Positions 42,001 to 44,553 of a DNA stretch of 64,000 nucleotides are shown piece after piece. The notes below the pieces were generated by a model that was not told where the DNA came from, ran no database searches, and saw nothing but the letters and a program-made list of their open reading frames with translations. The first letter of the stretch is position 1; each line of letters opens with the position of its first letter. The translations under genes were made by a program, and so were the position numbers. This stretch comes from Escherichia coli (lineage in GTDB: Bacteria; Pseudomonadota; Gammaproteobacteria; Enterobacterales; Enterobacteriaceae), in the NCBI RefSeq assembly GCF_003334305.1, contig NZ_QOWS01000014.1; one strand, written 5' to 3'.

Positions 42001-42891
42001 ACCCAACGGTAAAACGTTGAGCACGGGTCCGCTAGCCGTCAGCGCCGCCGAGCCCAGTCGACGCATAAAGATAAATCCGGCGGCATAGTCCATGCGATTG
42101 CACAATCGCCCCAGCCACAAGGCTGCCAGCGCAAGGGCTAAATCGGTACGCTGCACACCTGAAAGTTGCGTAGCCAGCTGGCGGAATTCCCCGTCGGTAA
42201 ATTCCAGTTTCAGGCGCAGAATATCTGCCGAAGCGCTGCGCCTCGCTAAAGGTGCCGGAGAAAGTGACGCGGGCGGCGGCAGTTGACGACGCTGTTCTGC
42301 CCAGAATGCCGCATCACGCTGCCAGGCTTCGCTTTCGCGGTATTGCTGGTACTCTTCCACTACATCAGCGAAAGGCGTAAACGGCGAAGCAGGCGTTGGT
42401 TCGCCACGCAGCCATGTGCAGTAAATATTGGCGATCTGGCGAGTAATGGCCGGGAAACTGAAGCCATCGACCAGCAAATGGTGATAACGCTGATACCAGT
42501 ACCAGCGGTTATCCGCAACATGTATCAGCTGATGAAAGACCAGTGGTTTACCGCTATCGACGCGCAAATCTTGTTGCAAATCCGCCAGCATTAATGCCTG
42601 CGCAGTACCGTGCGGATCAATATTGGTTCGCAGGTCGATAATTTCTGGCAGTTCGAATATCAGCGCATCATCGACCCACTGCCAGACTTCGCCGTTATCT
42701 TCCGTAAAACGCATCCGCAACGTATCTGCTTGCGCTAGTCCGACAACCACCGCGCGGGCCAGTAATGGCGCATCAACATCTCCAGTTAACTCAACGTAAT
42801 GCGCCACGCTCCAGGCGGAGGGTAAATCCGACAGTTTTTCTGCCATCCAGATGCCGGGCTGTGCGGCGACCAAAGGTAAATGCTGGCTCAT
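39010..42891 (-). CDS. entF: enterobactin NRPS EntF (C-A-PCP-TE, serine-activating)
   Basis: ORF 39010..43029; start trimmed to the ATG giving MSQHLPLVAAQPGIWMAEKL (1293 aa); start overlaps the ybdZ stop (ATGA). Confidence 0.93.
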   Translation of the reverse strand: MSQHLPLVAAQPGIWMAEKLSDLPSAWSVAHYVELTGDVDAPLLARAVVVGLAQADTLRMRFTEDNGEVWQWVDDALIFELPEIIDLRTNIDPHGTAQALMLADLQQDLRVDSGKPLVFHQLIHVADNRWYWYQRYHHLLVDGFSFPAITRQIANIYCTWLRGEPTPASPFTPFADVVEEYQQYRESEAWQRDAAFWAEQRRQLPPPASLSPAPLARRSASADILRLKLEFTDGEFRQLATQLSGVQRTDLALALAALWLGRLCNRMDYAAGFIFMRRLGSAALTASGPVLNVLPLGIHIAAQETLPELATRLAAQLKKMRRHQRYDAEQIVRDSGRAAGEEPLFGPVLNIKVFDYQLDIPGVQTQTHTLATGPVNDLELALFPDEHGDLSIEILANKQRYDEPTLIQHAERLKMLIAQFAADPALLCGDVDIMLPGEYAQLAQINATQVEIPETTLSALVAEQAAKTPDAPALADARYLFSYREMREQVVALANLLRERGVKPGDSVAVALPRSVFLTLALHAIVEAGAAWLPLDTGYPDDRLKMMLEDARPSLLITTDDQLPRFSDVPNLTSLCYNAPLTPQGSAPLQLSQPHHTAYIIFTSGSTGRPKGVMVGQTAIVNRLLWMQNHYPLTGEDVVAQKTPCSFDVSVWEFFWPFIAGAKLVMAEPEAHRDPLAMQQFFAEYGVTTTHFVPSMLAAFVASLTPQTARQNCATLKQVFCSGEALPADLCREWQQLTGAPLHNLYGPTEAAVDVSWYPAFGEELAQVRGSSVPIGYPVWNTGLRILDAMMHPVPPGVAGDLYLTGIQLAQGYLGRPDLTASRFIADPFAPGERMYRTGDVARWLDNGAVEYLGRSDDQLKIRGQRIELGEIDRVMQALPDVKQAVTHACVINLAAATGGDARQLVGYLVSQSGLPLDTSALQAQLRETLPPHMVPVVLLQLPQLPLSANGKLDRKALPLPELKTQASGRAPKAGSEKIIAAAFASLLGCDVQDADADFFALGGHSLLAMKLAAQLSRQFARQVTPGQVMVASTVAKLATIIDGEEDSSRRMGFETILPLREGNGPTLFCFHPASGFAWQFSVLSRYLDPQWSIIGIQSPRPHGPMQTATNLDEVCEAHLATLLEQQPHGPYYLLGYSLGGTLVQGIAARLRARGEQVAFLGLLDTWPPETQNWQEKEANGLDPEVLAEINREREAFLAAQQGSTSTELFTTIEGNYADAVRLLTTAHSVPFDGKATLFVAERTLQEGMSPERAWSPWIAELDIYRQDCAHVDIISPGAFEKIGPIIRATLNR

Positions 42892-43106
42892 TGTGCCTCC
42901 TGCAACTGGGTGAAATTGGCCGGTGTCAGAGTACGCCAGTGGACTTCCAGCCACTGCTGGCAGGACGCCTGTGACTGCGGCTGACACACAATGTCCCAGC
43001 CTGCCGGTAAGGCGCATTGTTGCGGCCACAGACTGAATTGCCCCTGCGCATTGCGCAAAATGTAAAACGCTCCCTGTGGATCATCGAAGGGATTACTGAA
43101 TGCCAT
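42888..43106 (-). CDS. ybdZ: MbtH-like protein YbdZ
   Basis: ORF 42888..43112; ATG at 43104-43106 gives MAFSNPFDDPQGAFYILRNAQGQFSLWP (72 aa). Confidence 0.9.
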   Translation of the reverse strand: MAFSNPFDDPQGAFYILRNAQGQFSLWPQQCALPAGWDIVCQPQSQASCQQWLEVHWRTLTPANFTQLQEAQ

Positions 43107-43108
43107 AT

Positions 43109-44233
43109 TCAACTCCTGTCATGGAAAAGTGGTTGCCAGAGGTCGATTAGCCCCTGCATCAAGCCACCGCGCCAACAAAGCGCATCATGTCCGCCGTCAA
43201 CCTGACGCCAGAAAATGGATTCTTTTATGGGGTGTAATTGCGCATACAGCGCCTGATTGGCCCGCATAATCATCGGCTCGCGAATACCCGCTTCCAGCAC
43301 AATGCGCAGACCTTCGGCGCTAACTTCACCAGCTTTAAGCTTTTCAAGTAACACGCCCTCTTGCTGCCCGCCCCGATGCGGCCACCAGTACGATCCTGAC
43401 TGGCTTAATACACAGCCAAAGCGTTCAGGCCAGTGCAGTCCGGCATACAGCGCGGAAAGTCCACCAAAACTCTGCCCGGCGACCACGGTGCGATCGGCGC
43501 GATCGCTAAAAGGGGCAATAGCTTTCACCAGGGGTAATAACTCTTGCTGTACTGCCAGCCAGAAATCCGCATTACACGGCAGTTCGTGAGCGCGGTGCGT
43601 AGTGTCGATAGCGTCGATCAACACATACACGGCGGGAGGAAGTTGCTGACGATGGGTCAACGAAGTCAGCACAGGCCAGACAGGCATACTCTGCGCCCAA
43701 AATTCGCCATCGAGCAAAACTGCCAGCGGGCGTTCTCCTGCTGTTGCATCGCCAGTGGTAAAAATCCATACACGGCGTGAATTTTTCAACCGTTCACTTT
43801 TCCAGATAATTTCTTTGGCAGGCGTTTCTGGCGCTTGCGGACAATCCCATCCCGGTTGCAGAGGCGCTTGCGGCATTTCGAGTGCAGAAACAGCGTGCCC
43901 TCGCCCGCCTTTCCAGCTTTGTGGATTCAGCGGATCGGCTATTGCCTGGGGTAATAGTTTTCGCCAGCCTTCACGTAATTCGAGGCGATCGGGGGATGGT
44001 GCAGAAAAAATGTCATCGCGTTCGGTGGGAATAAAACAGTAGCTGCCGCGCCAGTTGGCATTGAGTTGTGTCGTCCACTGCCAGACGTTGGTGCCTGCAA
44101 TTCGCTGCATCGACTGGGGCTGGCTGTTCTGATGGTGATCGGTCACACCAGTGATGTAGACCCATACGCGCTTTATCGTCGAGTATTCTTCAGAACCTTG
44201 GGGATCACGCCACCAGAAAGTGACCTCAAACAT
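43109..44233 (-). CDS. fes: enterobactin esterase Fes
   Basis: ORF 43109..44311; start placed at the ATG giving MFEVTFWWRDPQG (374 aa); the frame stays open 26 codons further up to a GTG at 44311. Confidence 0.8.
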   Translation of the reverse strand: MFEVTFWWRDPQGSEEYSTIKRVWVYITGVTDHHQNSQPQSMQRIAGTNVWQWTTQLNANWRGSYCFIPTERDDIFSAPSPDRLELREGWRKLLPQAIADPLNPQSWKGGRGHAVSALEMPQAPLQPGWDCPQAPETPAKEIIWKSERLKNSRRVWIFTTGDATAGERPLAVLLDGEFWAQSMPVWPVLTSLTHRQQLPPAVYVLIDAIDTTHRAHELPCNADFWLAVQQELLPLVKAIAPFSDRADRTVVAGQSFGGLSALYAGLHWPERFGCVLSQSGSYWWPHRGGQQEGVLLEKLKAGEVSAEGLRIVLEAGIREPMIMRANQALYAQLHPIKESIFWRQVDGGHDALCWRGGLMQGLIDLWQPLFHDRS

Positions 44234-44360
44234 TTCGTCATTCAGACGCTGCCATTCCGGGCCATGTTTCGACTGCCACCAGCTCTCACTTCCTACTTTT
44301 AACGCCGTCACACCATAACCCCATGTTTACTGTGCAATTTTTCATTGATTGCAGAAATAT

Positions 44361-44400
44361 ATTGATAATATTATTGATAACTATTTGCATTTGCAATAGC
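44361..44400. promoter_or_regulatory. overlapping Fur boxes of the bidirectional fes / fepA promoter
   Basis: attgataatattattgataactatttgcatttgcaatagc; tandem GATAAT-type repeats. Confidence 0.75.
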
Positions 44401-44553
44401 GTAATGGCGCGCCGTGGGAAGCGCGGACATTAATTAACCAACTGCACTGCGTGTCTTTCAGGATCAAAGGTTTTCGCGGTAGCGGGATGCGTCGTGTTGA
44501 TGACGACCATGCCCGACAGTTGCAATTCGTGGCAAAAATGCAGGAATAAAACA

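Follow-up and report, generated by a model that had tools for sequence, protein, structure and literature searches.

Codon conservation and protein structures favour a GTG start and a 400-residue Fes in Escherichia coli

Results

In the window analysed here, a stretch of 64,000 nucleotides of Escherichia coli DNA, Fes is very probably translated from a GTG codon at position 44311, and the 26 codons that this start places ahead of the historical ATG would be a conserved N-terminal element of the protein, not an optional leader. Fes is a cytoplasmic esterase that releases iron by opening ferric enterobactin. Four observations support the GTG start: the segment is conserved at the protein level, the GTG is kept together with a Shine-Dalgarno-like element, an alternative start is lacking, and the segment is present in the solved proteins. 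The GTG-initiated form of 400 amino acids is already known, as RefSeq/PGAP, NCBIfam and the PDB entries all use it. The start at MFEV, which the original prediction took to be the usual one, is only the old K-12 annotation and is superseded; the ATG was reportedly chosen in the original fes sequence paper of 1988.

The fes reading frame and its annotation

Translated from the GTG, the fes frame on the minus strand reads MTALKVGSESWWQSKHGPEWQRLNDE-MFEVTFWW and continues to 400 amino acids, with the stop codon at 43109-43111 (Table 1). Upstream, a TAA at 44329..44327 closes the frame six codons before the GTG, and between this TAA and Met27 no second in-frame ATG, GTG or TTG was found besides the GTG (identical locus L003). 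The original prediction, which noted that the frame stays open from the GTG to the ATG at 44233 and contains several Trp residues, agrees with the open reading frame list and the sequence in its coordinates, translation and Trp content; the extension contains three Trp (W11, W12 and W20).

Table 1 Features of the fes start region and their window coordinates
Feature	Coordinates	Strand	Basis
fes coding sequence, enterochelin/enterobactin esterase (400 codons + TGA)	43109..44311	-	Open reading frame list, RefSeq CDS, NCBIfam
fes GTG start codon (annotated RefSeq start)	44309..44311	-	Only in-frame start between TAA and Met27
Extension, codons 2-26, motif GSxxWW...G-P	44234..44308	-	Conservation, AlphaFold2, PDB 2b20/3c87/3mga
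ATG of Met27, historical 374-aa start, ordinary internal codon	44231..44233	-	Conservation, anti-Shine-Dalgarno duplex, AlphaFold2
In-frame TAA bounding the fes frame upstream	44327..44329	-	Open reading frame list and sequence
Shine-Dalgarno-like GGGGT, 6 nt upstream of the GTG, inside the conserved AAACATGrGGTTAT block	44318..44322	-	50-locus nucleotide comparison
Out-of-frame ATG GTG TGA overlapping the fes GTG start	44308..44316	-	Spacer comparison across genera
Published Fur footprint, mapped onto the window	~44356..44403	.	NC_000913 611868-611915, PMC2189734

Of 5426 complete E. coli genomes, 5415 carry the fes region at 95% identity or more. A 1501-nt query matched E. coli O43 str. RM10042 at 100% and nearly all other matching complete genomes (5415 matching) at 95-99% identity. 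In the two RefSeq/PGAP records opened, from a 100%- and a 98%-identical genome, fes is a CDS of 1203 bp whose first base corresponds to window position 44311. Fes of E. coli K-12 (b0585; WP_000125843.1, 400 aa) is encoded by the same gene, with the same GTG start, length and fepA / fes-ybdZ-entF neighbourhood at ~98% DNA identity, and differs by a few strain-level substitutions only. In the window, fes likewise lies in the enterobactin gene cluster, with fepA divergent and ybdZ and entF downstream.

The protein matches the NCBIfam equivalog NF007758 / PRK10439 with 706.3 bits against a cut-off of 222, and residues 2-398 of Fes align to positions 14-417 of the 418 in the model. We note that the NCBIfam model has 13 extra N-terminal positions. 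The Pfam architecture consists of Enterochelin_N (PF11806, residues 29-155, E = 4.7e-42) followed by Esterase (PF00756, alpha/beta-hydrolase, residues 174-390, E = 6e-21). PF11806 starts at residue 29 and so omits the conserved GSxxWW...G-P helix and strand of the same structural domain (residues 1-28, 44225..44311). The serine-hydrolase nucleophile motif G-x-S-x-G is found as GQSFG at residues 279-283; across 47 homologous sequences G279 and Q280 are invariant and S281 and G283 are kept in at least 90%, and G373, G374 and H375 are also invariant. By the usual pattern of this fold, the Ser of GQSFG and the conserved His would be catalytic. The identity of 97-98% to the Shigella enzyme, which was crystallised with enterobactin present (3C87), suggests that this Fes hydrolyses (ferric) enterobactin.

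Codon-level conservation of the extension

A 26-codon open frame by itself could arise by chance, and it is the codon-level conservation of the aligned loci that puts the extension beyond chance. We compared 50 genomic loci, one genome per species, of which 49 were aligned (Escherichia, Citrobacter, Salmonella, Enterobacter, Lelliottia and others). All loci but one keep an uninterrupted frame across the extension. Mean column entropies at codon positions 1, 2 and 3 are 0.60, 0.52 and 1.07 for extension codons 2-26, and 0.48, 0.31 and 1.21 for codons 27-155 (49 loci, a set biased by one of the two locus-search patterns, which sits inside the extension). The same signal was obtained (0.81, 0.79 and 1.15) in a less biased subset of 10 loci that have no exact match to the inside pattern and were obtainable only through the outside one. 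G7, W11, W12 and P18 are invariant in all 49 loci and S8 is kept in 48, with synonymous variation at several of these residues: G7 is encoded by GGA, GGC or GGG, S8 by AGT or AGC, and P18 by all four Pro codons. An untranslated leader would lack both this third-position excess and invariant Gly and Pro residues with synonymous changes.

The variable residues within the extension are 1-6 and 23-26. In pairwise comparisons with Citrobacter, Salmonella and Enterobacter cloacae/hormaechei, the extension has a pN of 0.19-0.34 and a pS of 0.42-0.79. Its dN/dS of ~0.1-0.5 is higher than that of the gene body (0.07-0.13); dS is saturated for most inter-genus pairs, and we placed weight on pN versus pS and on codon-position entropy instead of exact dN/dS values. 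Judged by these substitution patterns, the extension is under looser selection than the gene body, yet clearly translated.

The single locus with a broken frame is L045 (C. koseri NCTC10786, 1230..1240), where an extra G in TGG(G)TGG at W11-W12 causes a frameshift. We considered this frameshift as evidence against the extension and rejected it, since the frame of this gene changes at least twice more downstream of the extension, and the 147-member C. koseri protein cluster P0033 is intact. L045 is probably a long-read assembly error or a pseudogene. Stops or frameshifts in close relatives, which were to count against the extension in the original prediction, were thus found in no other locus.

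The extension in protein structures and in the wider family

The 26-residue segment is included in the solved proteins of Shigella flexneri (2B20, 3C87, 3C8D and 3C8H) and Salmonella Typhimurium (3MGA). The Shigella flexneri crystal sequences align over residues 1-400 (E = 5e-280) and are identical in the extension residues; these constructs differ from the E. coli protein by three extra tag residues and about five substitutions. Fes of Salmonella Typhimurium has the same N-terminal motif, GSEAWWRTKTGPEW, followed by the strand VTFWWRDPQG. It differs in having Asn, not Met, at position 27, and Salmonella reads GAA at the position of the E. coli GTG, its own ATG start lying one codon earlier.

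An AlphaFold2 model built on a 47-sequence alignment has a mean pLDDT of 94 and a pTM of 0.92, and the mean pLDDT is 83 for residues 1-10, 96 for residues 11-20 and 98 for residues 21-30. In this model, residues 9-13 with the WW motif form a helix, and residues 19-22 form a strand adjoining the strand of residues 27-35, at the start of which Met27 is located. The model agrees with the crystal structures with TM scores of 0.90-0.95 over 392-395 alignment columns. Given these aligned columns and the 388-397 ordered residues of the crystal chains, the greater part of the 26 residues must be ordered in the crystals. According to the model, a start at Met27 would deprive the N-terminal domain of one strand and of the invariant WW helix.

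The same element is found in more distant proteins. A homologue search among 1.84 billion cluster representatives returned many homologues of 35-47% identity, whose alignment to Fes begins at query residues 2-7. The 47-sequence alignment, which reaches down to 30% identity, has only 21 invariant columns, and G7, W11, W12 and P18 account for four of them; the alignment was picked from matches aligning from the N-terminus, making it a selected set. Among full-length 50%-cluster representatives, for which no N-terminal selection was applied, the pattern [FWL]W-x5-9-G-x-P ahead of the first strand is present in 85 of 104, versus 8% of shuffled sequences. In these Fes/IroD-type siderophore esterases (Enterochelin_N + Esterase), the aromatic-Trp ... 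G-x-P element precedes the first strand VTFLWR; they differ from Fes in that most carry 10-80 further N-terminal residues, and they share 30-47% identity with it. As far as these alignments tell, the aromatic-Trp...G-x-P element is a hallmark of the family and not a peculiarity of E. coli. Codon conservation and structures, both proposed as checks in the original prediction, clearly favour the GTG start, and its suspicion that the longer form might be real is borne out.

Choice of the start codon

Selection acts at the protein level on residues 7-22, and upstream of these residues the GTG is the sole start codon; translation would therefore have to begin at the GTG. Of the 49 loci, 45 keep the GTG. 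Only 5 of the 49 have ATG at codon 27, which elsewhere encodes Asn, Asp, Lys or Gln; even among the five other Escherichia loci, two (E. albertii and Escherichia sp. MOD1-EC7003) have Thr or Asn there. The block AAACATGrGGTTAT upstream of the start is common to all genera, and its GGGGT or GAGGT is Shine-Dalgarno-like. The GTG follows this element by 6 nt in Escherichia and by 7 nt in Citrobacter and Enterobacter. The predicted duplex with the 3' end of 16S rRNA is -5.4 kcal/mol before the GTG (top 12% of positions in the gene) versus -2.4 kcal/mol before the ATG, which is the median for positions in the gene and corresponds to no Shine-Dalgarno element. In Enterobacter there is no ATG nearby and the GTG is the sole candidate start. 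Citrobacter has an in-frame ATG two codons before the GTG, but this ATG lies just 1 nt past the Shine-Dalgarno-like element. Salmonella starts at an ATG that precedes the GTG position by one codon.

It is very unlikely, though the best surviving of the alternatives, that both starts are used in E. coli, with the GTG giving the full enzyme and the ATG a minor 374-aa isoform without the first helix and strand. In favour of this reading, the ATG shares the fes frame and occurs in E. coli, E. whittamii and one clade strain, with an independent occurrence in Enterobacter soli, and internal initiation is known for other E. coli genes. However, the ATG has no Shine-Dalgarno element and is not kept even within Escherichia, folding predictions give a more stable local mRNA structure at the ATG (-15.5 kcal/mol) than at the GTG (-5.6 kcal/mol), and the truncated product would lack the strand and invariant helix described above. 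The N-terminal peptide expected from the GTG start is TALKVGSESWWQSK, with or without the initiator Met, and that from the ATG start is MFEVTFWWR. Text searches of the literature for discussion of the start codon, an EcoGene reannotation and N-terminal peptides found nothing usable.

A start at the ATG alone, which would make Fes a 374-aa protein and the 78 nt upstream an untranslated leader open by chance, is still less probable and can hardly be upheld. ATG is the commoner start codon, this ATG was the K-12 annotation for many years, and Pfam Enterochelin_N begins at residue 29; Chen et al. 2007 also put the Fur site at -149 from the ATG (PMC2189734). Against this stand the codon pattern of the extension, the missing Shine-Dalgarno element, and the absence of the ATG from 44 of 49 relatives, including E. 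albertii, Escherichia sp. MOD1-EC7003, Salmonella and Citrobacter. In addition, the AlphaFold2 model shows the segment as part of the folded N-terminal domain, and the crystal chain lengths imply that it is ordered.

We give equally little credence to a third reading, in which the out-of-frame ATG at 44316 forms a two-codon upstream open reading frame and ribosomes that terminate on it reinitiate at the overlapping GTG to express fes: the stop of the mini-ORF does overlap the fes GTG and the Shine-Dalgarno-like element is just upstream, but GGGGT ends 1 nt before this ATG, a spacing too close for efficient initiation under established spacing rules, and Enterobacter and Salmonella lack the mini-ORF, while in Citrobacter it is in frame and in E. 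albertii no stop follows at once. Between GGTTAT and GTGACG, Escherichia has a spacer of 3 nt, as against 4 nt in Citrobacter, Enterobacter and Salmonella. Because the spacer is 1 nt shorter, the ATG is out of frame in Escherichia and the GTG is the sole option. From this comparison, ATG GTG TGA at 44316-44308 looks like a relic, after a 1-nt deletion, of the ATG that is in frame in Citrobacter. We consider it very improbable that this relic modulates fes translation, or that E. coli and its closest relatives make a minor truncated Fes from the codon-27 ATG; if true, either would add a lineage-specific post-transcriptional layer to Fur control.

Start assignments in related genera vary. In Citrobacter loci L007-L021, L042, L043, L047 and L051 (~1195-1203), gene callers use the ATG 1 nt after the Shine-Dalgarno-like GGGGT/GAGGT, giving proteins of 403-405 aa; the true fes start in Citrobacter may be the GTG two codons downstream of the called ATG, which is better spaced. 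Separately, P0093, from Citrobacter-like sequences, is called at 423 aa from an upstream ATG. In Enterobacter and Lelliottia (L022-L037 and L052), the fes frame runs on without a stop far upstream of position 1201 and across the Fur-box region, reaching 429 codons in L052, which invites over-long gene calls.

Position of the GTG relative to the Fur operator

The published Fur footprint at fepA-fes covers NC_000913 611868-611915 (PMC2189734). We converted it to window coordinates through a K-12-derived record, with a 1-nt offset inferred from the reported fepA distance, and its edge lies ~45 nt upstream of the GTG. The original prediction had placed the GTG within ~50 bp of the Fur boxes, which fits this mapping. 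Its further suggestion, that the longer form would move the N-terminus and change the leader length, does not apply, as a short leader of ~45-50 nt is already the accepted arrangement. Chen et al. 2007 reported the centre of the Fur cluster at 611889, with distances of 172 nt to fepA and 149 nt to fes (PMC2189734). By arithmetic on the K-12-derived coordinates, the distance of 149 nt fits only the ATG, and the GTG is ~71 nt from the cluster centre; Chen et al. 2007 therefore used the old ATG start. Two divergent transcription starts 19 bp apart have been reported (PMC4469952). From the Fur footprint and the transcription start positions, we infer that the GTG is within the fes transcript. No minus-strand site reached the threshold of a consensus promoter scan. 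TTGCAA-17 nt-TAATAT at ~44396-44368, picked out by eye, could plausibly be the fes promoter; it has only 8 of 12 consensus positions and was not relied on.

For the preferred GTG start, the following sequence of events may be proposed. The mRNA would start in or just after the Fur-covered promoter, with the transcription start placed by inference ~45-50 nt upstream of the GTG. The ribosome would be recruited by the conserved Shine-Dalgarno-like GGGGT 6 nt upstream of the GTG and would initiate at 44311 in vivo. The extension would then supply the short Trp-Trp helix and the beta-strand that adjoins the strand beginning at Met27.

The 400-aa GTG-initiated Fes is the form to be used for cloning, for the interpretation of structures and for the distance between the Fur operator and the start, which is ~45 nt rather than ~125 nt. 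Older literature and the Pfam domain boundaries reflect the superseded ATG start.

Downstream of fes, we observed in the region 42888..43111 (minus strand) that ybdZ (MbtH-like, 72 aa) starts at 43106, 2 nt past the fes stop, and that the 3' end of ybdZ and the annotated start of entF share 4 nt. This tight packing suggests translational coupling along fes-ybdZ-entF.
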